This document shows, one piece after another, positions 1 to 13,744 of a DNA stretch of 64,000 nt (position 1 is its first letter; every line of letters starts with the position of its first letter). The stretch spans positions 2,848,001-2,912,000 of the forward strand of contig OZ255836.1 in the NCBI GenBank assembly GCA_965277715.1. The letters are read 5' to 3'. The notes beneath the pieces were generated by a model. That model saw only the letters and a program-made list of their open reading frames with translations. It did not search any database and was not told where the DNA came from. The DNA is from Gammaproteobacteria bacterium. GTDB taxonomy: Bacteria > Pseudomonadota > Gammaproteobacteria > JBCCGL01. The position numbers were made by a program, and so were the translations under genes.

Positions 1-2898
1 GATTTCTACACCGAAAATCTCTACAGCGAACTGGGTTTTCTTCACAGTGTGCGTGGCAGTCGTCTCCGGGCAGAAACCGGTGATCTCAGCCAATTAGCCC
101 CGTTAATTCTGGCCGCGACAGACCTGGCTGAAAGCTACGAAACCCGTGCGCACACCTTGCGGCGCATTGGGCAGCGGTATCGCGCCAAACTCGACGACTA
201 CCGCGCATTACTTGCCATACAAACCCGTGCAGAGGCGAAATATCAGGCTGACCTTAAAGAAGCTGAGAAAGAAGCTGCCAGTCAACCCTTGGTGAGCGTA
301 CAGGTACCGATTAGTGTTGGAGATATCACCATTTTCGTACCTGGCTGGCGCAGTCAATTGGTTCTGCCAACCAGAGACCCTGTGCCTGTACCGCATTTAA
401 GCGATGACTTGCAAGCCGATCTGAATAGCCAGAAAAGTTTGCTAACAGAAAGTATAAATAATGCCAAGATAGAAAAACCCCATGTAATTACCCTGGCACC
501 AGTTAATGTCAATGGTATAAGTATTTTCATACCGGTCGAGAATGGCCAAGGAGTAACACCTACCCAGAACCTTAGTTCTGACGAACAAACAAAGCTAACG
601 GCGAGTATTGGGCAAAACCAAACCCTCTCACCGGCATTTTTAGGCCACCTCAACAATACCGTTATTGAGCTTGAGAATGTCATTGCGTTACTCGATCAGC
701 ATATCGGCAGTTACACCCAATTGATCGAACAAATCACCGTATTAGCCGAGCAAACGCTGGCAGCGGCAGATCAAAGCTTCCATTACACACGCAGCCTTGA
801 AAACGGTGCTGAAAGCTATCAAGCACAAACGGCTGATACCCAACATATCACCTACTGGCAGGCGCTTGATGCCGATGCGTCCGGGCGCATTACTGCAGAA
901 TCGTATGGTAACGGTATCGTTAACGACTACAGCTACAATACCGCCACTGGTCAGTTGCAAGTTATCCATAGCGGCCTGCTTGCCAGCACCGCGATACGGC
1001 ATATCGAATACCAATACGACGCCTACAATAATGTCACATTGCGCGATGATCTGGTTAACGACATCCGCGAAACCTTCGAGTACGACCGCTTAGACCGGCT
1101 GACCGCCACGCACTTGGTCAGTGAGCGCTTTATCGGTGGTGGTCTCGATATTGCGCAAACCCAGAATTATGACGTTTACGGCAATATCACCTACAAATCT
1201 GACGTGGGTCACTACCAATACACCAGTGGTCGGCCACATGCTGTTAGCAGCGCGGGTAATCATCAATACCACTACGACGCCAACGGCAATATGCTCGAAG
1301 GCGATGGGCGCCGTTTCACCTGGAACAGTTTTAACAAACCGATCCATATCAGTAAAAACGGCAAATCGGCCCGTTTTAGTTATGGCCTTGACCGGGCGCG
1401 CTATAAAAAGATCAATCACACAGGTGATACCACCTGGTACGTAGGGGGATTGTACGAGAAACAGGTCACTGACAACGGTCAACACACCCGGCATCAACAC
1501 TACATCTATGCTGCAGGCAATCGGGTCGCCAGCCACAGTGTTTCCAGCAAGGAGGGTGTTAAAACCCACTATCTGCACAAAGACGCGCTCGGCAGTATCG
1601 ACACGATGACGGATGCTGACGGTCAAGTGGTTGATCGGCGCAGTTACGATGCCTGGGGCAAACAACGCCATTTTGACTGGCAAGGTGCGGGGTCGCTGTA
1701 CAGCATGCGTTTACTGTTTACCACCCGGGCTTATACCGACCACGAATCGATTGAAGAAGTGGGCCTGATTCATATGAATGGGCGGATTTATGATGCAAGC
1801 CTGGCGCGGTTTGTTAGCGCTGATCCGCATATACAGGCGGCGGGCATGAGCCAAAGCTATAACCGCTATAGCTATGTGCAGAATAACCCCATGAAGTATA
1901 CGGACCCTAGCGGGTACTTTTTTAAGAAGCTTTTTAAGTCGATTAAAAAAGCGGTTAAAAAAGTGGTAAAAGCTATTAAACCATTTATAGGGGTGATCAT
2001 TGCGGCTGTGGTGACTTTTTATTGTCCACCCTGCTTAGCGTTAGTGGGGGGAAACGCAGTTGCACTGGGCGCACTGGCCGGGGCAGCAGCAGGGGCAGCC
2101 AGTGCGGCTGTTAATGGTGGTAATATACTTAAAGGTGCCATTACTGGCGGTATATCGGGTGCTATATTTGCGGGAATAGGTGTGTCAGGTTGGGGAGATA
2201 CAGCGAAGGTATTGGCTCATGGTGTAGCGGGAGGATTTATGTCTGTGGTGCAAGGAGGGAAGTTTGGGCAGGGATTTTTGAGTGCTGGGTTTGCTAAATT
2301 TGCAACGACCAACCTGACTAATGGCGGTGTTTTTAATATGGCTGATCGAAGTGCTGAGAGTATTGTGGGCAGAACGGTGGTTGCGGCAGTGGTGGGGGGT
2401 ACGGCATCTAAGCTTGGTGGGGGTAAGTTTGCAAACGGGGCGAGGACGGCGGCTTTTGCGCATTTACTTAATGCTGAGGGGACGAATCCACATAGGAAAA
2501 ATGGAACAGGCCCGGGGGGCATTGGATCAAATGGACCTAAGAATTTTCACTATGAAGGACGCGACGCATTAAATGTCGGTTTGCCAGAAAATTTAAGTGA
2601 TGCAAGGCACTTTCGAACTGGTACTGAACTACCTTCAAGTCAGGCAATATTTCATGATAATGGAGATTCGTATCCTGAACATAAATTCATTTTTAACGAC
2701 GGAAGGGAAGCTGTTTATGACGGTTTAAGTCAAGATTTGATTACTAACCCAGAATATGCGGGTACTTATAACTATGTGAATCCCAAACCAGGTGCTCCTT
2801 GGTACCATCCTAAGAATATTTTACATGGGATTGTGGATGTTGTTCCTTACTGTATAGGTGGAAATAATCGAGCGGGAGCTGGGCCATCATGTTTTTAA
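1..2898 (+). CDS. Rhs/YD-repeat polymorphic toxin, C-terminal part (5' end lies outside the window)
   Basis: Frame is open from base 1. YD repeats (YDAYNN, YDRLDRL, YDANGN), Rhs core HMNGRIYD...YSYVQNNPMKYTDPSG, then a Gly/Ala-rich hydrophobic region and a variable C-terminal tip. Confidence 0.95.
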   Translation, partial: DFYTENLYSELGFLHSVRGSRLRAETGDLSQLAPLILAATDLAESYETRAHTLRRIGQRYRAKLDDYRALLAIQTRAEAKYQADLKEAEKEAASQPLVSVQVPISVGDITIFVPGWRSQLVLPTRDPVPVPHLSDDLQADLNSQKSLLTESINNAKIEKPHVITLAPVNVNGISIFIPVENGQGVTPTQNLSSDEQTKLTASIGQNQTLSPAFLGHLNNTVIELENVIALLDQHIGSYTQLIEQITVLAEQTLAAADQSFHYTRSLENGAESYQAQTADTQHITYWQALDADASGRITAESYGNGIVNDYSYNTATGQLQVIHSGLLASTAIRHIEYQYDAYNNVTLRDDLVNDIRETFEYDRLDRLTATHLVSERFIGGGLDIAQTQNYDVYGNITYKSDVGHYQYTSGRPHAVSSAGNHQYHYDANGNMLEGDGRRFTWNSFNKPIHISKNGKSARFSYGLDRARYKKINHTGDTTWYVGGLYEKQVTDNGQHTRHQHYIYAAGNRVASHSVSSKEGVKTHYLHKDALGSIDTMTDADGQVVDRRSYDAWGKQRHFDWQGAGSLYSMRLLFTTRAYTDHESIEEVGLIHMNGRIYDASLARFVSADPHIQAAGMSQSYNRYSYVQNNPMKYTDPSGYFFKKLFKSIKKAVKKVVKAIKPFIGVIIAAVVTFYCPPCLALVGGNAVALGALAGAAAGAASAAVNGGNILKGAITGGISGAIFAGIGVSGWGDTAKVLAHGVAGGFMSVVQGGKFGQGFLSAGFAKFATTNLTNGGVFNMADRSAESIVGRTVVAAVVGGTASKLGGGKFANGARTAAFAHLLNAEGTNPHRKNGTGPGGIGSNGPKNFHYEGRDALNVGLPENLSDARHFRTGTELPSSQAIFHDNGDSYPEHKFIFNDGREAVYDGLSQDLITNPEYAGTYNYVNPKPGAPWYHPKNILHGIVDVVPYCIGGNNRAGAGPSCF

Positions 2899-3410
2899 AA
2901 AAAATATTATTTTTTTTATTTTTAGGTTTGTTAGTTGGATGCAAACAGGTCGTTTTTATAGAAAACAAAATATCCAATGACTATTTGGGCGGTAATCTAA
3001 ATTATTCTGACAATATCATATTAAATGCTAATAAATTAGATGGATTGCTGTTTCTAGTAGACACTGCTTCGTATATTCGCAGCCAAAACTCGACATATGA
3101 TGTTGTGATTTTTTTGATTCTGGATTCAGATTCTGATCGAGAAATCATGCTTGAGAAGATAGTGTTAGTCGGTGATCAAGAAATTAGCCTAATCGGCACT
3201 ATAATTGAGAAAGATCTAAAATTTAAAAATTTGAATTCTAGTAGCAAAATACTCCGATCTAGGTCGAGAGTAGAGTTTAATATTCATAGCCCCAATGACA
3301 TATTGACAAGCGAAAACTTACATCTATATATTCAATATATTGAAAACGGAGTTCGTAAATCTATAGACCTTGACTTATTTGCAAGAAAAGAACGGGTTTC
3401 TATTACGTAG
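2889..3410 (+). CDS. Putative immunity lipoprotein for the Rhs toxin
   Basis: Overlaps the toxin stop codon, AT-rich, signal peptide with lipobox LVGC. Confidence 0.75.
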   Translation: MFLKKILFFLFLGLLVGCKQVVFIENKISNDYLGGNLNYSDNIILNANKLDGLLFLVDTASYIRSQNSTYDVVIFLILDSDSDREIMLEKIVLVGDQEISLIGTIIEKDLKFKNLNSSSKILRSRSRVEFNIHSPNDILTSENLHLYIQYIENGVRKSIDLDLFARKERVSIT

Positions 3411-3414
3411 TATA

Positions 3415-3441
3415 ATCGCGATAGGAATGCCGGTCACCCGG
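3415..3441 (-). mobile_element. Probable remnant of a group II intron 3' end (domain VI)
   Basis: Minus strand reads CCGGGTGACCGGCATTCCTATCGCGAT, resembling a bacterial group II intron DVI hairpin and terminal AT. Only 27 nt, cut at the GGGGTCA motif. Confidence 0.4.
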
Positions 3442-3461
3442 GAACAAAAGGGGTCAAGGCA

Positions 3462-3661
3462 GAATGGCACTTCCTTAAGCTCTAAGTACATGAAAAATAT
3501 GGAAGTACTTTCATTGTAAATGATCTATTTCTGTTTTTTGGGATGGCCATATTTTTTAACAACACTTCTGGCCACGTCCCTTGGCTGCATCAATAAAGGA
3601 TACGGTTTGGGTCTTCGTTTAACCACTCTTGGTTCAATACGCCCTGGTCGATTACCCACAC
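3462..3661 (-). mobile_element. IS4-family right-end fragment (inverted copy of the end of the 6667-8231 element)
   Basis: Near-identical reverse complement of ~8032-8231, starting with the TIR GAATGGCACTTCCTTAAGCT. Confidence 0.9.
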
Positions 3662-3681
3662 TAGAAAAAGGGGTCAGGCTA

Positions 3682-3921
3682 GAATGGCACTTCCTTAAGC
3701 TGTAAGTATTTGAAGTAATTACAAAAAAAGCTGGTTCTATGGTAGGTTATTTGTTGCCAACACAAATACCCTTTATCCCACAGGAACCAGCCATCATGCA
3801 GAGTAATGTAAAAGTCAACATTCTTCAACGTCGCATCAAAAGCCGAGCTCAATCCTCGGATGCATTGAGTTTTTATCACTTGCTGACATCCTCTCAGTTA
3901 CTTACGAAACTGGAAGAATTA
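3682..3921 (+). mobile_element. IS4-family left-end fragment
   Basis: Near-identical to 6667-6906, truncated at the next motif copy. Confidence 0.9.
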
Positions 3922-4046
3922 AAGTAAAAGGGGTCAGGCTAGTTATTTACTAAAGTAAAAGGGGTCAGTAAAAGGGGTCCAGTAAAAGGGGTCAGGCTAG
4001 TTATTTACTATTTAAAAGATGAAAGTAGAAATAGGACAGGCACTAT

Positions 4047-5539
4047 AGGTCACTGACAACGGTCAACACACCCGGCATCAACACTACATCTACGCTGCAG
4101 GCAATCGGGTCGCCAGCCACAGTGTTTCCAGCAAGGAGGGTGTTAAAACCCACTATCTGCACAAAGACGCGCTTGGCAGTATCGACACGATGACGGATGC
4201 TGACGGTCAAGTGGTTGATCGGCGCAGTTACGATGCCTGGGGCAAACAACGCCATTTTGACTGGCAAGGTGCGGGGTCGCTGTACAGCATGCGTTTACTG
4301 TTTACCACCCGGGCTTATACCGACCACGAATCGATTGAAGAAGTCGGCCTGATTCATATGAATGGGCGGGTATACGATGCAAGCCTGGCGCGGTTTATCA
4401 GCGCCGATCCATATATACAGGCGGCGGGCATGAGCCAAAGCTATAGTCGCTATAGCTATGTGCAGAATAATCCGATGAAGTATACGGATCCTAGTGGGTA
4501 TATTTTAAAGGGATTGCTTAAAAAAGCATTCGGGGGACTTGCGGGTCTTGTATTAGGGCCGTCGGTGGCTTTTCATCATCAACTTGTGAAGAAAGCTACA
4601 AGAGCCGTTATTCGGGCTGTAGGTCCAAAAATTGCCAATCTCGCGGCGACCATTGGTTCAGCATTTTGTGGCCCTTTTGCGGCGCTGTGTTATGCGCACG
4701 CGCAATACGATATAGCCAGAGCGTATGGGGCTTCGCCCTCGGAAGCCGCTAGAGGTGCCGCTGTAGCGGGGATAACGTATTATCTTGGCCAACAAGCCAG
4801 TAGCTGGGTTGGTTCAACCTTTGACATTAATGCTGGTGCAGGTCAGTATGCCTTGAATGTAGCTGCTAATGGTGTGGTTGGTGGTACTTTGGCGGTTGCG
4901 CAAGGCGGAAAGTTTGGTTATGGGTTTGTTTCGTCGGCCTTTGCTGCAGGGGCAAAGTCGTTGAACTTTGATATTTGGGGGAAGTCCGCTAATTATAAAA
5001 TTCATCGGACGGTTACTGCTGCGGTGATTGGGGGGACGGCATCTAAGCTTGGTGGGGGGAAGTTTGCAAATGGGGCGGCTAGTGCGGCGTTTACTCATTG
5101 GCATAATACAGAGAATACTCTTGCTGCACAGAAAGCGAAGGTTGTTAGTGTTACCGATAAAAAAGGTAATACTGTTTACACGCTTGGAAAAGGTACTGTT
5201 ATTGTGAATAAAGGTGTTACAGTCAAAAACACAACGGATGGTGATACTATTGTTGATGTTTTGACTGTTAGTGAAAAAATAGAAAAAACTATCTATGTAA
5301 TAAGTGGCCACCGAACAAAAAGCACTGCCAGTGAACATTATCGAGTAGCTGTTGATTTATATGTTCCTGGACAGACAAAGACTACAACGCCAGCATTGCG
5401 AGATACAATTCATGATATGAATATTTTTAATAGGGTAGCTTCGTACCACGATAAAAATACTGTGCATGTAGATTATAAATCCACTGGTAACCAAGGGCGG
5501 TTTCACGACAGTGGAGATGGTTGGGTGCATATTCCATGA
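4047..5539 (+). CDS. Orphan Rhs core plus C-terminal toxin with a peptidase M15 (LAS Zn-metallopeptidase)-like tip
   Basis: 4047-~4500 nearly duplicates 1463-~1917 up to DPSGY (longest ORF 4190-5539). Tip has SGHR...SEH...AVD...HVD, the M15 motif set. Confidence 0.85.
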
Positions 5540-6069
5540 AAAAGCTTTTTTATTTTTTTATTTTAATTTATACATCTAGCTGTGGAAGCATAGAAGTTGC
5601 TTCTTTGGGTGATTATATTGATGATTATCACAAATTAATTGGTTTTGAAATAGCTGAATTGAAAGAGATTTTTAGTGATTCAAGTGTGGAATTTTCCCCT
5701 ATTTCAACTCACGAACCAGAAGAGTCAATGCCTGCTTTTTTAGTTTCTTTTAAGGATAAGAGTTTTTTTTCTATAGGCGGTGATAAAATCGATGCTTTGT
5801 TGTTTAGAGAGAAAAATTTTAAATTTCGCAAAGGTGCCAAAATCGGCCAAGGTTTTTGCGAAATTATAAAGTTATATTCAGAAGCGAGGTTTTATTTTGA
5901 TTTTTCTGAGGGAACGTTATTGCAATTGCATATTGAAAATGGAAGAGTTATTTTAAATTTTGATACATCAAACTTACCTCTTGGACAATACATATCACAG
6001 GGCTACCCAAGTAAAGATGATTCTACTCTTTGTTCTTCACACCTTATCTATATAAAGCTTTCCAATTAA
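5536..6069 (+). CDS. Putative immunity lipoprotein for the orphan toxin
   Basis: ATGA overlap with the toxin stop; MKKLFYFFILIYTSSC lipoprotein-type signal. Confidence 0.7.
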   Translation: MKKLFYFFILIYTSSCGSIEVASLGDYIDDYHKLIGFEIAELKEIFSDSSVEFSPISTHEPEESMPAFLVSFKDKSFFSIGGDKIDALLFREKNFKFRKGAKIGQGFCEIIKLYSEARFYFDFSEGTLLQLHIENGRVILNFDTSNLPLGQYISQGYPSKDDSTLCSSHLIYIKLSN

Positions 6070-6414
6070 ACTATAAGAAAAAATAGGACAGATACCGTAT
6101 TAAGAAGCAAGTAATTTTTGATCATCGAAAAATAGGATGTATAGGGGGCAAGTATCATATTGAACACTATAAATTGAATCACGTAATACTAGAAATATGT
6201 GTAGCGTGCCACTTTCTGATCGTATAAATCCCCCAAATTATCTATCATAGTATTTTTCAGTTTTTCGGCGTTTTTGCCACATTCCGATCATAATAAAAAA
6301 TACTTTTACCGCATTAAAATCTGACGTTTTACCCATCCATATTATACCCGTACGATAACCTTGGCTGACCACGATACTCTCGTAGGTTGCCCTTTATGAT
6401 GTCATGGGTTAACT

Positions 6415-6649
6415 TGTAACAGGGAGCACATAGCCCCCTGTTACGATAGATGTCGCAAACAACGTTTCTCTAAGAGTTGATGCTATTTTCACTGTCCGAA
6501 AAGGATAAGGTGGGTATCCTGGTTCTCTCCCTTACGCCACTTGCTGTTTGATTAATTCTTCATGAGAGCGCCAATGGGGTTGTACCAACACATTGTTGAC
6601 ATAACTGATTGTCACGATTTTTTTGGTTTCTCTACAAGCTTCGATAAAC
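6415..6649 (-). mobile_element. Right-end remnant of an IS21/Mu-like element with the C-terminus of an ExeA-like AAA ATPase
   Basis: Minus-strand frame FIEACRETKKIVTISYVNNVLVQPHWRSHEELIKQQVA* (6532-6648) resembles transposon helper ATPase C-termini; TGT end near 6415; truncated at the 6651 motif. Confidence 0.4.
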
Positions 6650-6666
6650 AAAAAGGGGTCAGGCTA

Positions 6667-8231
6667 GAATGGCACTTCCTTAAGCTGTAAGTATTTGAAG
6701 TAATTACAAAAAAAGCTGGTTCTATGGTAGGTTATTTGTTGCCAACACAAATACCCTTTATCCCACAGGAACCAGCCATCATGCAGAGTAATGTAAAAGT
6801 CAACATTCTTCAACGTCGCATCAAAAGCCGAGCTCAATCCTCGGATGCATTGAGTTTTTATCACTTGCTGACATCCTCTCAGTTACTTGCGAAACTGGAA
6901 GAATTACAACCGGATTTTCGAGCGCGTCGCTATCCTCCTCTAGACACCTTATCGCTGTTTTTATACCAAACAATGAGTGCAGATCAGTCCTGCCAACAAG
7001 CTGTCAACACACTCGCTGTACAGCGATTAAGTGAAGGTTTATCAGTGAGTAATACGTATACAGGGAGTTATTGTAAAGCGCGACAAAGGCTGCCAACCCC
7101 CCTCGTCTCAGGGCTTGCCCGTTGTACAGGCGAGTGTGTGGCGAATGAAGCGGCCAGTCACTGGCACTGGCAAGGGCGTTCAGTTAAATTGGTTGACGGC
7201 ACCACTGTGACAATGCCCGATACGCCTGAAAATCAGGTAGTTTATCCGCAATAGTCAGGCCAGCAAGTGGGGATCGGTTTTCCTCTTTGTCGCTGGGTAG
7301 GAATTATTTGTTTAGCCAGTGGTGGTGTTCTCGATGCGGCAATGGGTCCTTTTAAAGGTAAGGGAGCGGATGAGCAAACGTTATTGAGAAAAATACAAAA
7401 TGCGCTTAAACCGGGTGATATTGTGGTGGGTGATGCCTATTTTGCGGGTTATTTTTTTCTAGCAAACCTTATAGAGCAAGGAGTAGACGGTGTATTTGAG
7501 CAGCATGGTGCGCGGCGTAAATCCACAGATTTTCGAAAAGGCAAAAGGCTTGGATCGAAGGATCATCTGATTTGTTATACAAAGCCCAAGAAAAGACCAG
7601 AGTGGATGAGCGAAGAAGCCTATGAAGCGGCGGCTGATGAAGTGGTTATACGTGAACTGAAAGTGGGTAAAAAACTGTTGGTGACAACGTTGTTATCAGT
7701 TAAATCGGCGTCTAAAGAGGCTCTTAAACAGCTCTACAAAGAACGCTGGCATGTCGAACTTGATTTACGCCATATAAAAACGACAATGAAGATGCACACC
7801 TTCCGTTGTAAGACGCCAGAAATGGTTGAGAAGGAAATGTGGGTACACATATTAGCTTACAACCTTATTCGCTTATTAATGGCGCAATCTGCCTTACTAG
7901 TGGACATACTGCCTCGACAGATAAGTTTTAAGCATACGTTACAAATTTGGGTAGCGTATCGTTATCAGAAAGGCGGTAGCTCTCTGGGTAGTGATAAGGT
8001 GTTGGCGCTATGTGCGTTGATTGCAGAAAACTGTGTGGGTAATCGACCGGGGCGTATTGAACCAAGAGTGGTTAAACGAAGACCCAAACCATATCGTTTA
8101 TTGATGCAGCCAAGGGACGTGGCCAGAAGTGTTGTTAAAAAATATGGCCATCCCAAAAAACAGAAATAGGTCATTTACAATGAAAGTACTTCCATATTTT
8201 TCATGTACTTAGAGCTAAGGAAGTGCCATTC
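6667..8231 (+). mobile_element. IS4-family insertion sequence, full length
   Basis: TIRs GAATGGCACTTCCTTA at both ends; flanks gggtcaggcta / gggtcaagaca (imperfect 11-bp duplication). Confidence 0.92.
6781..8169 (+). pseudogene. IS4 transposase with an in-frame nonsense codon
   Basis: DDE motifs (LVDGTT, VGDAYF, YKERWHVELDLR); TAG at 7252-7254 splits one continuous frame. Confidence 0.9.
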
Positions 8232-8329
8232 GGGTCAAGACAGTTATTTCCTATATTTCTTGCTGGAAACCACTGTTTTTATCTGTATTAGTCGTTGTAT
8301 GGTGAATAATAAGCCTGACCCCCTTGCTT

Positions 8330-8528
8330 TGGGCTCGCCAACTATAAAGCGTACCTTGTGCAATGCCTTCTTCTTTGGCTAACCGGGAAATTGTCTGATT
8401 GTTCGGCGGCAGCATCTTCTTTAAAACAGCGGCCTTTCTTTCTATTGGATAACGCATACCACTCTCTCTTTGCCTCCTGTAATAACTTATTGAATCCCAA
8501 TTTAGGGAGGGGGACAACTACCCTGACA
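8330..8528 (-). mobile_element. IS3-family left end with truncated OrfA
   Basis: TG-starting end; MRYPIERKAAVLKKMLPPNN...EEGIAQGTLYSWR HTH (ATG 8457), cut at the inverted motif. Confidence 0.8.
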
Positions 8529-8535
8529 CAGGGAG

Positions 8536-8886
8536 CTCTGTCATAGCAGACCAATAGCGAAAATATTCGCCCCGAATTGGCGAGATATAAGCGAGGGTTT
8601 TTATAACGAATTTCACGGAATGGCGAAGCAGGCAATAACGGCGAAAGAATTGGCTGACGTACCCTTCCAGATGCTCAAGTCGTTGAAGACAAATTTCACC
8701 CCAAGGGATCACCACTTTATAATGTCGTTCAAAAATGGAAAAACCGACTGGGCGTATGCGCCGAATGAGCGTATCCAAGATTTACCTGCTATAAAGTGGA
8801 AACTAATGAATATTCAAAAAATGCCTGCCAATAAGCATCAAAAAGCTGTGGAAAAACTGAAAATGGTATTGGATGCATGGCTGTGA
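8536..8886 (+). pseudogene. C-terminal fragment of an AbiEii-family nucleotidyltransferase toxin
   Basis: HSRPIAKIFAPNWRDI...SFKNGKTDW...LPAIKWKLMNIQKM matches my recollection of AbiEii C-termini; 5' part is missing next to the IS3 end. Confidence 0.65.
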
Positions 8887-9016
8887 ATCACCAACCATAG
8901 TAAAATCTACAGGCAGCGCCTGATAGTTTCGTACCAGATTACAGAGAATAAACTGTCAAGATATATGTTAATACATTCCTATGCCTCCTTTTTTTCAATT
9001 TAAGCAGGTTGCGCCC

Positions 9017-9744: not shown

Positions 9745-11284
9745 CATGGGTGTACCACTAGAATCCTGCCAGGAAGCTAATAACGCAATGAATAACACCT
9801 GACAAGAGCCGCCATGAGCTACAAATAGTATTTTTTATAATATTTGTACTGTTTTTTTATAAACCGATAACACGCTTTATAATTCATAAAATAAATAAAA
9901 TTATCCAAAAAAACACTTGCATTCACCAGCAGAATTTTTTTTAAAATACCCATTTAATATCTGATTAAATGGGCAAATTGAATATGAACGAAATGATGAC
10001 CGTTGAAGAATATATCACCGAACACTGTAAAATAAGTATGGAAAAAGCAATTGCTGCTGAACGCTTCCCTTTATGGAAAAGATCATGTGATGCCATTGAT
10101 GACGTAGCTTTTTCTCGCCATGGGTTACTTCGCTGTATAAGTCTTGTACATAGTGGTCGTCACTATCTACAGGTTACGGATGAAATATACGACGAGACAA
10201 TTTGTCATTCAAGCTATTTTAACGCATTGAAGTCGACAAGACGGATGAAGATGATGCAAGCCATGGAAAAGCAAAGCTATCAACTGCAAAGTGAGAAATT
10301 ATCTTCTTTGGACATTGATTATTTAAAACAATTTCCTGAACTTGAAGAATATCGAGTAGAAGCAGCTGATGGTCATTTTATACAGCATGCTTGTCACACA
10401 GAGAAAAATCGTCAGGGCAACGTCTTCGCAGCAGGCTTTATTCATGCCTTGAACCTCAGAAATGGACTTCTAAGACCACTTTGTGTCGTGACTAACGGTA
10501 CTGAACGGCACCAGGAAATACCCGCGTTACGTTCTTATATTGAACAACGTTGTGGCGAAAAAGAGACTTGGCAAAAGCATCTCTATATATACGATAAGGC
10601 GGTGACTGATTATGCATGGTGGGAAAAGCAAAAACAGCATCAGAATTTTATGATTTCAGTACTCAAAGAAAATGCAGTTGCAACTTTTGTCAACTCTATA
10701 CCCTATGACCAGGGTAGTGAAATTAATACAGGGGTTGAAGGCTATAGTGTATATAAAAATAAAAAGGTTCAATTTCATATTGTTAAATACCGCGACCCAG
10801 AAACAGGTCAATTACATCAATTTATTTCAACGCTACCAGAGTCAATTAACCCAGGCACTATTGCTATGCTCTATTACAAGCGTTGGACGATAGAAAAATC
10901 ATTCAACAATAGTAAAAGTGATTTCACCGAAAGAAAAGCCTGGTCTTCAAACCTGAATGCGCTGAACAGTCAAATGCGTTTTACTGCTATGGCCTATAAT
11001 ATCATGCGTATTTTTGAAGAAATATCAAAAACAAAAAACCTGGAATGTATTCATCCATCTGATAAAAAATACACTAAAATGCTTGATAAGAGACAACAAA
11101 TTGCCCAGAAAAAAGGCGGCTTTGTTAATCCATTGTTTTTTTACGCTAGAATTACCCGTATATGCTCATTCACCATCCGCTCTCTGCAAAATGCAATAAT
11201 GACAAGAAAGTCCCTTAGAACTATTATGCATAGCTTAGTGAGGCATTTAAAACCTCGACAGCCAGGAATTTTGAAACACTGATG
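9745..11284 (+). mobile_element. IS4-like insertion sequence
   Basis: CAT-starting imperfect TIRs (CATGGGTGTACCA / CATCAGTGTTTCA); perfect 8-bp TSD CTCATAAT (9737-9744, 11285-11292). Confidence 0.9.
9969..11282 (+). CDS. DDE transposase (IS4-like), intact
   Basis: AADGH, YDKA, LYYKRWTIEKSF (YREK-type) motifs. Confidence 0.88.
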   Translation: MGKLNMNEMMTVEEYITEHCKISMEKAIAAERFPLWKRSCDAIDDVAFSRHGLLRCISLVHSGRHYLQVTDEIYDETICHSSYFNALKSTRRMKMMQAMEKQSYQLQSEKLSSLDIDYLKQFPELEEYRVEAADGHFIQHACHTEKNRQGNVFAAGFIHALNLRNGLLRPLCVVTNGTERHQEIPALRSYIEQRCGEKETWQKHLYIYDKAVTDYAWWEKQKQHQNFMISVLKENAVATFVNSIPYDQGSEINTGVEGYSVYKNKKVQFHIVKYRDPETGQLHQFISTLPESINPGTIAMLYYKRWTIEKSFNNSKSDFTERKAWSSNLNALNSQMRFTAMAYNIMRIFEEISKTKNLECIHPSDKKYTKMLDKRQQIAQKKGGFVNPLFFYARITRICSFTIRSLQNAIMTRKSLRTIMHSLVRHLKPRQPGILKH

Positions 11285-12847
11285 CTCATAATAGAGTTTT
11301 GAATCACCACTATATGAATTGTAGTACTCTTCCAAACTTCTTTGAAACATAGTCAGGGATGCCAACTGTTCTTTTTTTATTGGGGTTTGATTATTTGTAG
11401 CTAAAGTAATACGAGTCTTTATTTCATCGCTATCTGTTGCGATTATCTTGATAGGGACATTGACGTTTTTAATGTGTTCACTATTCCTATTGTTAAAAAG
11501 AACATTACTTGTTTGACATCCATTAACGATTTGATAGTCCCTGATAGTAAAACTATCTCCAGTTGGTGAAATTGAACTAGCAACAATAGTTACTCCATTA
11601 TTTAGAACACTAAATAAATCTGAACTGCCCTCATTAAGAGTCTTTTTTATTCCGCTGTTAACATCATTGTTCGAACCCTGAAAGTCCCTAACGTTATCCT
11701 CAAAAACGTTAATCAAGTTATCCTCTTCATCGGTCAATATCTTCTTAAATTCCGAAAATGGGAGCAGGCCAATATACGCTTCTGAAATGCCCTTAATTGA
11801 AGGAAGTGTAACCCTATTGTTAAAATTTATAGTTGTAGAAATCGCCTCTTTAGTCTTTCGAAATGACGCAGCAATTTCCTTCGCTCCATAAGGGTTAAAT
11901 AGAACCTTTTCAAAAAGATTTAGTTGCTCCAACTCATTGATGCCTTGACTAATCACGGCAGAAAGGTTTTGATCACCAGTCCACTTGCCTGTGTTGCAAT
12001 AAAACAACTTTATTATTGGGTTTTCCTTGAAATGGGGTGCTTTAGAATATATGTGGTCTGAAATATCTGCAATTCGCATAACGTCTGCGTTTCGCATAAG
12101 GGATGGTTTTAGGGCGAAAAAATCTTTCACCCCAAAAATAAAGGTACTTAGATCCCCGTTACTATAACTCGAGGAAGTCTTCGATTGAACAAATACATAA
12201 TTCACTTCCAAAGAAGAGTTCTTCTCAAGTAAATCATCTACTTCATCTTTGTCCTCAATCAATTGTCCGTTTACTATAATTGCGATACCATCAAGCCCTG
12301 TATCGCCACCGTCACCTACGGTTACTTGGCCAATATCGAAGGTTTTAGTATACTCATTTGAAATAATGCAGTAATTTGCTAACTTTTCAAAATCTTTTGA
12401 TTCACCTTCAGAGTTTAGTTCTTGATTACTTAGGAGCTCACTAATCAAACTTTGTGTAATTCTATCCATTTTTAACCCTTCAAAATAATTGTAATATAAA
12501 ATTCATGGCTGATTTATATAGCCATACTTTCTCTCATTTTAATGCTGAAAATAATAAAAATGCCTTTAGTATTTATTATTGTTATTTTCCAGCCATAGTT
12601 AGAGTAGCATATTTATGGTTTTCGAAAATGACTTCGCTATGAGTAAACCATCATTTCTCACGTCTATATCTGAATTTGTGCAGATGCGTCGATACAGAAA
12701 GCGCACTATAATTGCTTGCATTTCCGAATTAAGGTATTCGTAATTTTGAATTGTAAAACACTCGAAAGACCTAGGCAACAGGTAAAATAGAAGAAATTTC
12801 TTAGCTGTTTATTATTCACCATCTGGCCATCATGTGAATTCTCTTAC

Positions 12848-13744
12848 CTAAATTAAATGGCCGCTGTTGAGACGCTCAACCTTCTCCAAACAAAGCCTTT
12901 CCACCATCCCCTGCAAACACTCAACCCGCTCAGCCAACCACTTAAGCTCCTCCTCTGTAATTTCATAATGCTCAGAATAACGGGCATCGACATACGCCTT
13001 TTTCAACAACTGAAACCGGCGGCGCTGAACTTTGGTATCTTGCGGAAAAACTCCGGCAATATCTTCATACTGCAAAATAGCCAGGGAGTTAAGTTGTTGC
13101 AAATTGTGGGTATTGGGTTTGTAGTTGGTGACTACCAATAGCAGGCAGGAATATAGACGCTCTGCGACTTGATGTAGCAGAAAAGCGGCAATTTTAACCT
13201 CCCCATCTTTTATTGCGTACTGATATTGTTTGAAGAATCCATTAGCACTTTCAAACCATTGCTTATAATGCTTTTCCGCAACGGCTTTATATTGCGCCGC
13301 TGATAAATTACCCTCTTGCACCAACTCAGTTTTGTCAAATTCATACAGCAAAACGCCCTGCTGTTTAATATCAGAAAAAAAATACTGCCCCTCCATTAAG
13401 GCATTATTCACTTCCTTCAGGGTATGTACCAGAATGTTGATAGGGGGCCGCACACGCAGGGCAACTCGCTCATCAACGGCATTCCAGAGTTTATAGTCCT
13501 CCACTAATTCGGCTTTATTCAGAATCACCAGAATATCGTAATCGCTGACGTAACCGTGGGCCGGATCATTCACCCACTTACCCGTGGCAAAACTGCCAAA
13601 CAGAATAATCTTGGCGATACGGCTGTGCTTTTTCTTGCCGTTGGCAAAGCCGGTTACTTGCTCAAATTCGTCGCGTATTACTGAAACGATATGGGCAATA
13701 TCATTTTGCTTGGAGGTGGGTAAATGATCGAGGGATCGCTGCAT
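12848..13744 (-). CDS. Fused nucleotidyltransferase (MNT) and HEPN domain protein
   Basis: ILFGSFATG...SDYDILV N-terminal NTase; AAFLLHQ...NTHNL...AYVDARY HEPN domain. Confidence 0.88.
   Translation of the reverse strand: MQRSLDHLPTSKQNDIAHIVSVIRDEFEQVTGFANGKKKHSRIAKIILFGSFATGKWVNDPAHGYVSDYDILVILNKAELVEDYKLWNAVDERVALRVRPPINILVHTLKEVNNALMEGQYFFSDIKQQGVLLYEFDKTELVQEGNLSAAQYKAVAEKHYKQWFESANGFFKQYQYAIKDGEVKIAAFLLHQVAERLYSCLLLVVTNYKPNTHNLQQLNSLAILQYEDIAGVFPQDTKVQRRRFQLLKKAYVDARYSEHYEITEEELKWLAERVECLQGMVERLCLEKVERLNSGHLI

Follow-up and report, generated by a model that had tools for sequence, protein, structure and literature searches.

A motif between Rhs cassettes of a sponge-associated gammaproteobacterium: probably the end of a small gene-less repeat of the TIRYT type, and a landing site for an IS4-subgroup element

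The window analysed here is the whole 64,000-nt stretch between positions 2,848,001 and 2,912,000 of contig OZ255836.1 (assembly GCA_965277715.1), and its host is an insertion sequence (IS)-rich, sponge-associated gammaproteobacterium. Near the start of the window lies a main Rhs gene, ending at 2898, with an open reading frame (ORF) of 173 amino acids behind it and, further on, an orphan Rhs piece; between and beyond these lies a patch of mobile-element fragments interspersed with copies of a short motif (Table 1; all positions are those of the window). The motif, the head of which reads GGGGTCAG, is a dispersed, multi-copy repeat end that is present as singles, one ~95-bp inverted pair and a cluster. 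An IS of the IS4 subgroup uses the motif head as a target, entering after base 12 and duplicating 11 bp (GGGTCANNNNA). On the evidence set out below, the motif is probably the end of a small gene-less repeat of the TIRYT type on which IS4 lands, and not the builder of a toxin array. TIRYTs are the enzymes of TIRtrons, i.e. genes resembling those of the repetitive extragenic palindrome (REP)-associated tyrosine transposases (RAYTs) that lie within long inverted repeats (Di Nocera et al. 2013, PMC3733652).

Table 1. Features of the motif-bearing patch and the adjoining Rhs sequences, in window coordinates
Start	End	Strand	Feature	Remarks
3411	3441	+	Unique tail after the 173-aa ORF behind the main Rhs gene	Not a repeat fragment
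3442	3461	+	Outer part of split end-repeat (8 outer nt + GGGGTCAAGGCA)	Cut by IS4
3462	3661	-	IS4 right-end fragment (IS4 positions 1565 to 1367), inverted	Truncated at next repeat; 97.5% over 200 nt
3662	3681	+	Outer part of split end-repeat (TAG + AAAAAGGGGTCAGGCTA)	Cut by IS4
3682	3921	+	IS4 left-end fragment (positions 1-240)	Truncated at next repeat; 99.6% over 240 nt
3922	3953	+	Complete single end-repeat unit (AAGT + 23-mer + ACTA)	Without IS4
3954	3980	+	Two partial copies (13 and 14 nt)	Each from 7 nt outside GGGG to GGGGTC(C)
3981	4010	+	Complete single end-repeat unit	Followed by 36 nt of other sequence and the Rhs orphan
4047	6069	+	Orphan Rhs C-terminal piece and following 182-aa ORF	Homology to main gene from 4047 = 1463
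6198	6647	-	3' end of DDE + AAA-ATPase transposon (last 38 codons + non-coding end)	Multi-copy; truncated at 6647
6648	6666	+	Outer part of split end-repeat (AC + AAAAAGGGGTCAGGCTA)	Cut by IS4
6667	8231	+	Full-length IS4-subgroup element, 1565 bp, decayed	NF033592
8232	8329	.	Rest of ~95-bp inverted pair: left-arm inner remainder GGGTCAAGACAGTTATTT, spacer, inverted right arm 8301-8325
8330	8530	-	5' fragment of IS3-type element (HTH_Tnp_1 ORF)	Truncated at the pair's right arm

The window was scanned for the motif by exact and mismatch matching, with shuffled-sequence controls. The full 23-mer (AAAAGGGGTCAGGCTAGTTATTT) is found in two exact copies (3926 and 3984; chance expectation 0), and no further match appears in the whole window when up to three mismatches are allowed. 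The core AAAGGGGTCAGG has 11 matches with at most two mismatches (shuffle mean 4.46; 0 of 100 shuffles reach 11), eight of them within 3447–8325, seven on the forward strand and one on the reverse strand. Outside 3.4–8.4 kb, the window contains no further copy of the motif, the IS4 element or the inverted pair. The head proper occurs five times, at 3670, 3930, 3988 and 6655 on the forward strand and at 8322 on the other strand, and two heads deviate, namely those at 3450 (GGGGTCAA) and 8232 ((G)GGGTCAA). The copies at 3446, 3666 and 6651 consist of the outer 16–17 nt only because the IS4 element begins directly behind them, and the 8232 copy is the inner remainder of a copy split by IS4. The copies are gene-less and are arranged as singles (3926, 3984), a dimer (6651/8232–8325) and a group (3922–4010). 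The inverted arm at 8301–8325 is 83% complementary to the 3927 copy, and the inverted pair folds with −9.4 kcal/mol (z −2.1); a single motif forms no hairpin (−1.4 kcal/mol, z −0.7) and carries no GTAG tag. Among the eight left-type ends in 3.4–8.3 kb, a right partner exists for only one. The 4 nt beyond the A-run vary from copy to copy (GAAC, CTAG, AAGT, CAGT, AAAC, AAGC, GGAG, AGAG), and the A-run outside GGGG is invariant, unlike what independent 5-bp duplications would leave. The motif also stutters into itself: a tandem-repeat search identifies the stutter at 3954–3995 with a period of 13 and 3.2 copies, and the stutter joints show AG microhomology.

The full-length IS4 copy encodes a recognizable IS4-family transposase (PF01609, DDE_Tnp_1, 61 bits; NF033592, 134.7 and 70.4 bits for the two halves) between terminal repeats that start GAATGGCACTTCCTTA and are at least 16 nt long, and the stretch 3665–3921 equals 6650–6906. 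This resident copy is broken by an in-frame TAG at 7252 and by the loss of 1 nt in the right terminal repeat. For comparison, contigs from four other runs (X1, X2, X3 and X6, from four studies, three of these runs being sponge metagenomes) were matched against 2800–9000, where stretches without coverage in X1–X3 are uninformative. A C at 7252 is found in all four runs, so that intact, open IS4 copies must exist elsewhere, and an extra T behind 8215 is found in three of the four.

At three junctions and in both orientations, the IS4 terminus follows directly after the 12th base counted from GGGG: the joints read ...GGGGTCAGGCTA/IS4 twice (left end of the IS) and ...GGGGTCAAGGCA/IS4 once (right end), and on the opposite side of the full copy the joint is IS4/GGGTCAAGACAGTTATTT. 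The presence of both orientations implies at least two independent insertions here, and an X1 contig contains a fourth motif variant (...GGGGTCATATAT) followed by the IS4 left end at the same base. On the two sides of the full copy, 11 bp align in register (GGGTCAGGCTA on the left, GGGTCAAGACA on the right), which points to AAAAG-GGGTCAGGCTA-GTTATTT as the intact target of the 11-bp duplication. The two flanks differ at 3 of the 11 positions and hence derive from two motif variants, making the full copy a recombinant between IS4 copies.

On its outer side the motif has a fixed border, beyond which unrelated, truncated DNA follows; this pattern is seen in the window, elsewhere in the organism and in a genome unrelated to it. 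In the window, the homology to IS4 stops at 3661 and 3921, and the distance from the end of the neighbour homology to GGGG, counted by hand, is 8, 8 and 7 nt, with 5–6 nt at the inverted arm and 8 nt for the unique tail at 3441; the corresponding offsets in other places of the organism are 7, 6, 10 and 8 nt. The AAA-ATPase fragment is 57% identical (E 2e-14) to the C-terminus of an ATPase encoded beside a DDE integrase gene on an Undibacterium plasmid, and contigs of the other runs break at 6200 and 6647, so this transposon piece is itself a repeat. Full copies of the IS3-type element read on past 8329 in X6, X2 and X3. A motif-like sequence at the end of the IS3-type fragment (8506–8530, reverse strand; TGTCAGGGTAGTTGT), with 12 of 15 core positions, was dropped, one equal chance match being present in the window.

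These results bear on an earlier note on this stretch, made from the sequence alone, which listed the motif copies, the stutter and five fragments truncated at the motif. All its motif positions are present in the sequence, the stutter is recovered by the tandem-repeat search, and the fixed outer boundary that it described holds beyond the window as well. Four of the five fragments are indeed mobile elements that end 5–8 nt from GGGG; the fifth, a supposed group II intron end at 3415–3441, is not supported, as 3411–3441 has no Rfam match and is contiguous with a unique upstream gene in run X1, where 2800–3441 lie on one contig that stops at 3441. The note also missed that the IS4 termini at 3462, 3682, 6667 and 8231 represent insertions into the motif and not truncations. 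Its statement that the window encodes no recombinase for the motif agrees with the profile scans and with tblastn: Pfam and NCBIfam models detect no recombinase beyond two IS4-family transposases among the 30 window ORFs scanned.

Within the sequences searched, the motif appears to be private to this lineage, given its absence from genomes, metagenomes and nearest relatives. The exact 19-mer has no match in 185,579 species-representative genomes or in metagenome contigs; a degenerate 23-mer yields eight metagenome matches, none with the variant letters of the window, and none in viral contigs. The flanks inspected for these eight matches are apparently unrelated and partly coding. A 20-mer from the IS4 end has no match in viral contigs, and the 111-nt inverted pair has no meaningful match in plasmids. 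By MetG, the closest genomes are only 75–69% identical (best 75%, then 72%, the best being alone in its order), and the motif is absent from the five nearest ones at up to two mismatches.

The head of the motif, by contrast with its full length, has counterparts at the ends of Y1 genes. In genome G118, AATGGGGTCAG occurs ~27 times, and many of these occurrences stand at the beginning of a recurring unit, which extends into an ORF with the start MARLPRYVIPGQPQHIIQRGNNRQ. The intact ORF (232 aa) matches the NCBIfam model of the REP-associated tyrosine transposase with 80 bits (cut-off 80) and Pfam Y1_Tnp with 49 bits, with AATGGGGTCAGACAC 66 nt before its start codon and an inverted copy behind the stop codon. 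When the target of the IS4 relative is compared with the Y1 end of the same genome, 12 of 12 positions agree in G118, 12 of 12 in G173 and 11 of 12 in G319. Among 20 homologue loci from four other genomes, 15 were read (L118, L120, L124, L125 and L131, which are fragments or overlaps, were left out); GGGGTCA stands within 140 nt upstream in seven of these and TGACCCC over the stop codon in three. Homologues of P0001, a 285-aa TIRYT with a Y1_Tnp match of 56.7 bits and a weak HTH tail, are present in 69 of 299 sampled genomes, and at the best 30 TIRYT loci the consensus GGGGWSAS lies within 160 nt upstream in 22 and inverted downstream in 14. The control consisted of the 30 best loci of canonical RAYTs; the search for these gave matches in 136 of 249 genomes, a tally that includes G044 and G145, both marked as unpublished, on which no other result depends. 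With L156 (G145) left out, GGGGTCA was found upstream in 1 of 29 loci and TGACCCC downstream in 0 of 29.

This head and its arrangement agree with a class that is already in print, and the 'undescribed system' of the earlier note is therefore not supported. TIRtrons share the motif GGGGWSAS and also occur as gene-less singles, dimers and groups (PMC3733652), and most TIRYT genes belong to TnpA-Y1 subclass 2.1, with the consensus GGGG[AT][CG]A[CG] (Quentin et al. 2018, PMC6006769). The window copies resemble these elements in the outer motif and in occurring as gene-less singles, dimers and groups, as well as in having arms that are inverted-repeat ends and not hairpin REPs. Of the two enzymes that the note had named as candidates, one, the Y1/RAYT-like transposase, fits the comparative evidence, GGGGTCAG-headed repeats being found elsewhere around Y1/HUH genes with the same stutter. 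On this reading, the copies in the window would be TIRYT-type ends without a gene, on which a Y1 enzyme encoded at another place in the genome acts in trans. The likeness to REPINs and RAYTs is more general: there, too, two inverted short repeats make up a unit of ~100 nt with singles as remnants, and a Y1 enzyme, often single-copy, is presumed to mobilize the repeats in trans (PMC3116915, PMC3337134, PMC5581495). In contrast to these, the motif has no GTAG/GTGG tag and no palindrome in the single repeat, and its GGGGTCA head is found at one in 29 canonical RAYT loci.

The stutter provides a second link, measured here and not a published criterion. A profile was built from 36 TIRYT ends of 23 loci; scored with the whole profile, the window copies take ranks 1, 3 and 6 of all positions in the window. 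A scar, defined as a partial copy (6 outer nt and the first 6 of the head, at most one mismatch) within 70 nt outside an end, is present at 13 of the 36 ends (11 of the 23 loci), compared with 8 of 1303 random places, a 60-fold enrichment; in both outer stutter and offset the window copies match these ends. The window and the loci retrieved for comparison supply 47 stutter pairs. In 24 of these the last base of the partial copy is base 6 or 7 of the head, and in 22 the next copy restarts 6–9 nt outside GGGG, with a mode of 7; the two short pairs of the window have 7 and 8. The truncated neighbours stop at a matching distance from GGGG. A one-sided array lies at positions 1246–4351 of locus L099 (G118:C3:777500-784500). 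It consists of three Y1 units in tandem, truncated at 472, 304 and 27, and a full unit of 803 nt behind them; every new unit begins 6–9 nt outside GGGG, and an IS4 relative occupies the third head. No remainders of the truncated units are found within the 7-kb locus; nested insertion is therefore no explanation for the G118 array.

Relatives of the IS4 element (E ≤ 1e-50) are present in 11 of 399 sampled gammaproteobacterial genomes, and the same IS clade occupies the same register there, beside GGGGTCAG sequences that head inverted repeats around predicted Y1/HUH genes. The IS ends are readable at nine of 15 loci, giving 14 ends, 12 of which abut GGGTCAG or CTGACCC. The intact target duplications of the relatives are 10–11 bp long, with clean 11-bp direct duplications at L079, L082, L087 and L090 and, from a separate search, L078. 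Several flanks hold stutter arrays of the same head. The right flank at L081 (G173:C14) contains about six partial head copies (TAATAAATGGGGTCAGACAC and shorter) within 150 nt, all with a common outer border and differing inner ends. L087 (G109:C23, 1–110) mirrors 6651–8325 of the window: of the two arms (AAAAGGGGTCAGG(G/A)CTCTTTT) of an inverted pair of ~85 nt, one contains an IS4 relative (38% amino acid identity). The closest plasmid relatives (57% amino acid identity; Pseudomonas veronii and Aeromonas caviae, L075 and L076) have the same terminal repeat and are located after GGGGCCAGGCCC (~1919) in an istB-like ATPase gene, with 9 of 12 bases matching the window in register; their right ends have been removed by an IS30-type element.

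Insertion into repeats is familiar among ISs. ISRm22 (IS4 family, 10 of 10 copies in REPs), IS1397 and ISKpn1 (IS3 family) and IS621 (IS110 family) target REPs (PMC1525189), IS1111 enters QMITE2 of Coxiella (PMC5896051), and the insertion specificity of IS4-subgroup members has been called 'spectacular' (PMC2266710). As in those cases, the IS lies at one fixed place in a small dispersed repeat and, as in QMITE2, the outer 10–20 nt of the repeat are left on its far side (PMC5896051). What differs is the target, a TIRYT-type GGGGTCAG end and not a GTAG hairpin REP, and the IS, which is of the IS4 subgroup and has relatives with the same target in the 11 genomes. The comparison also shows that TIRYT ends serve an IS4-subgroup clade as target in several Gammaproteobacteria. 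A full-text literature search for 'TIRYT' returned only PMC3733652 and PMC6006769, 'IS4' has no occurrence in PMC3733652, and, supplementary lists aside, neither the targeting of GGGGWSAS ends by an IS4-subgroup clade nor a 7–8-nt scar came up in the literature search.

HUH/Y1 enzymes, as worked out for IS608, nick single-stranded DNA at a specific site and remain bound to the 5' end. A mechanism resting on this general chemistry can be proposed tentatively, with GGGGTCAG heads as possible live substrates of a trans-acting TIRYT. The enzyme would nick the GGGGTCAG strand ~7–8 nt outside GGGG and stay covalently attached to the 5' end, which would later be resealed to an extended, trimmed or foreign 3' end. 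If the free 3' end were extended before resealing, a partial tandem copy, i.e. the stutter, would arise, and longer extension would give 3'-truncated tandem copies; if it were trimmed or swapped for a foreign 3' end, the neighbour would be deleted or replaced up to the fixed border. Such a border would explain why the truncated IS4, transposon and IS3-type pieces all stop 5–8 nt from GGGG. One reaction would thus cover the stutter, the 3'-truncated tandem arrays and the one-sided erosion of neighbouring IS and Rhs genes, and the scars would record, for the first time within genomes, where and how the TIRYT class cuts.

Tandem reiteration of REP clusters together with flanking DNA has been noted before (PMC3733652). 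The window and the comparison yield numbers that can be tested: a border ~7–8 nt outside GGGG, a 13–15-nt scar and one-sided truncated arrays. A fixed end joined to variable DNA is also the product of one-ended transposition by IS801/IS91 (PMC3189936) and Tn21 (cited in PMC4133298), and fragments with one intact end are common near toxin and virulence genes. Those systems differ in using Y2 rolling-circle or DDE enzymes and a target tetranucleotide; the motif does not have the conserved tetranucleotide of IS91/ISCR next to its fixed end, the 4 nt outside its A-run being variable. Most IS801 genome fragments, according to the authors, result from reorganization and not from one-ended events (PMC3189936).

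Several observations weigh against the TIRYT assignment and the reaction proposed for it. The window copies have no adjacent Y1 gene, and tblastn with 10 Y1 transposases finds none in the window (best E 0.24). Two heads (GGGGTCAA) depart from GGGGWSAS in the last letter, and the body beyond 9–10 nt is unlike the sampled ends: profile positions 10–26 alone are not significant, 7–17% of the window positions scoring as high, so that kinship beyond the 9–10-nt head is not supported by the sequence. The IS4 relatives also enter look-alikes of the head in ordinary genes (the istB-like gene), and IS4 occupancy alone is therefore no proof of TIRYT origin. The high copy number in the window, the erosion of neighbours and the occupation by IS4 do not appear in the published descriptions of TIRtrons, as far as these go, and the passages on TIRYTs in PMC3733652 and PMC6006769 contain no biochemical test of any of these enzymes. 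Finally, nested insertions combined with deletions between repeats could also yield the junctions of the window, and the hybrid IS4 flanks imply that recombination between copies does occur here.

This last process is central to an alternative that traces the motif to a DDE transposon, e.g. of the Tn3 family, as the terminal inverted repeat of a derived miniature inverted-repeat transposable element. The end would just happen to contain the IS4 target, and the neighbours would have been shaped by nested insertions and homologous deletions among repeats in a decaying, IS-rich symbiont genome. We regard this explanation as unlikely. Besides the hybrid flanks, it has on its side the ~95-bp inverted pair, the motif tail that differs from TIRYT ends, the GGGGT start that is common to 5 of 8 Tn3-family ends examined, and the description of solo Tn3-type ends and one-ended transposition (PMC4133298). 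It also has a precedent in IS231, an IS4-family element reported in the terminal inverted repeat of another element, Tn4430, where the 11-bp direct repeat of IS231C (TGGCGGTACCC) has a length close to that of the duplication seen here and, as printed, likewise starts GGGT on the other strand (PMC5604178). Tn4430, however, is a Tn3-family DDE transposon of Bacillus, whereas the host element here is most likely a Y1 element end. The stutter with its 7–8-nt offset is a trait of the ends of Y1 genes, and the targets of the IS4 clade in three other genomes are Y1 ends. Simple insertion of such elements would predict a right partner for more than one of the eight left-type ends, and nesting fails for the matching one-sided array of G118, which leaves no remainders. 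An inner end motif of the Tn3 type is not demonstrable either. The remaining comparisons with the Tn3 family favour neither side: no Tn3 transposase was found in the five genomes searched, and Tn3 ends from other genomes share GGGGT only.

Still less probable is an explanation without any dedicated enzyme, in which the stutter is replication slippage at A4G4 runs and the junctions reflect illegitimate recombination and the activity of an IS4 hot spot. In its favour, the stutter joints show AG microhomology, the patch is littered with the remains of at least four kinds of mobile elements, and tandem-reiterated REP clusters without a known mechanism are on record (PMC3733652). The same offset is found, however, at unrelated flanks in many genomes, the scar is enriched at ends over random places, and IS4 duplicates positions +2 to +12 of the head whereas the stutter spans −7 to +6. 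As the duplicated segments differ in this way, excision footprints of IS4 were likewise rejected as the source of the stutter.

The contigs of the other runs show how the parts of the patch are connected elsewhere. The summed contig depth in X6 is ~185–190 over 2800–3420 and 5284–6111, and over the remaining stretch it is 5–25 times that of the unique flanks in the four runs, a value that indicates repeats and is not a copy number. Elsewhere, Rhs sequence (4146, 4752, 5076) or the ATPase-transposon piece (6258) adjoins the outer motif side, with 0–7 extra letters in between, and a partial end is followed by a new end as 4007 + 9 letters + 8232 (X2 and X3) and 8262 + 9 letters + 8232 (X6). That the arrangement at 3442–4046 is an assembly artefact of collapsed repeats is highly improbable: all parts other than the two stretches just named are multi-copy and no contig among those listed spans the whole stretch, but one X6 contig runs across 3441/3442 and on through the first joint of motif and IS4, joints of a partial end with a new end recur in contigs of three other studies, and the same architecture is found in unrelated genomes. 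The table of joints for run X6 also includes one from 3680 to 6667 on opposite strands, where two heads seem to stand head-to-head, without a spacer, as a perfect palindrome.

The motif does not organize the Rhs cassettes; mobile DNA piles up in the dispensable DNA between them. The start of the orphan Rhs piece is 99% identical to 1463–1762 of the main gene over 300 nt and lies 37 nt beyond the nearest motif unit, and the apparent loose end ahead of 4047 consists only of sequence from the main Rhs gene itself. In the earlier note, the motif was read as the site at which an undescribed, integron-like system would capture Rhs toxin/immunity cassettes and line them up, and this can be set aside as having hardly any probability: the motif cluster does lie between the main cassette and the orphan, and contigs from elsewhere join Rhs sequence to the outer motif side, but only one cassette border in four (3441/3442) abuts the motif, an attC-type hairpin is absent from it, no integrase is present among the ORFs scanned, the repeat also abuts IS4, the DDE + ATPase transposon and the IS3-type element and so shows no cassette preference, and the Rhs links in the run contigs arise by construction because only this stretch was compared. 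For annotation, a false lead is thereby removed, and the motif is better read as selfish DNA that accumulates, and erodes its neighbours, between Rhs toxin cassettes.

Short sequences also recur around the Rhs pieces. AAATAGGACAG is located at 4030–4040 and 6080–6090, i.e. just before the orphan Rhs piece and just after the ORF downstream of it, and a similar ATAGGA...CCGGT is located at 3425–3440, after the ORF behind the main Rhs gene; these may represent a conserved tail of Rhs cassettes. Contigs from other places continue from 4047 with the letters of 6186 onward.

Beyond the patch, a second transposase (437 aa, 9969–11282, forward strand) weakly matches models of the IS4 and IS701 families, and no GGGGTCA was seen near the ends of this gene. 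Beside the mobile patch lie two defence-like ORFs (11141–12469 and 12848–13744, both on the reverse strand), one with a weak match to the anti-phage AIPR protein MzaE and the other combining a nucleotidyltransferase with HEPN.

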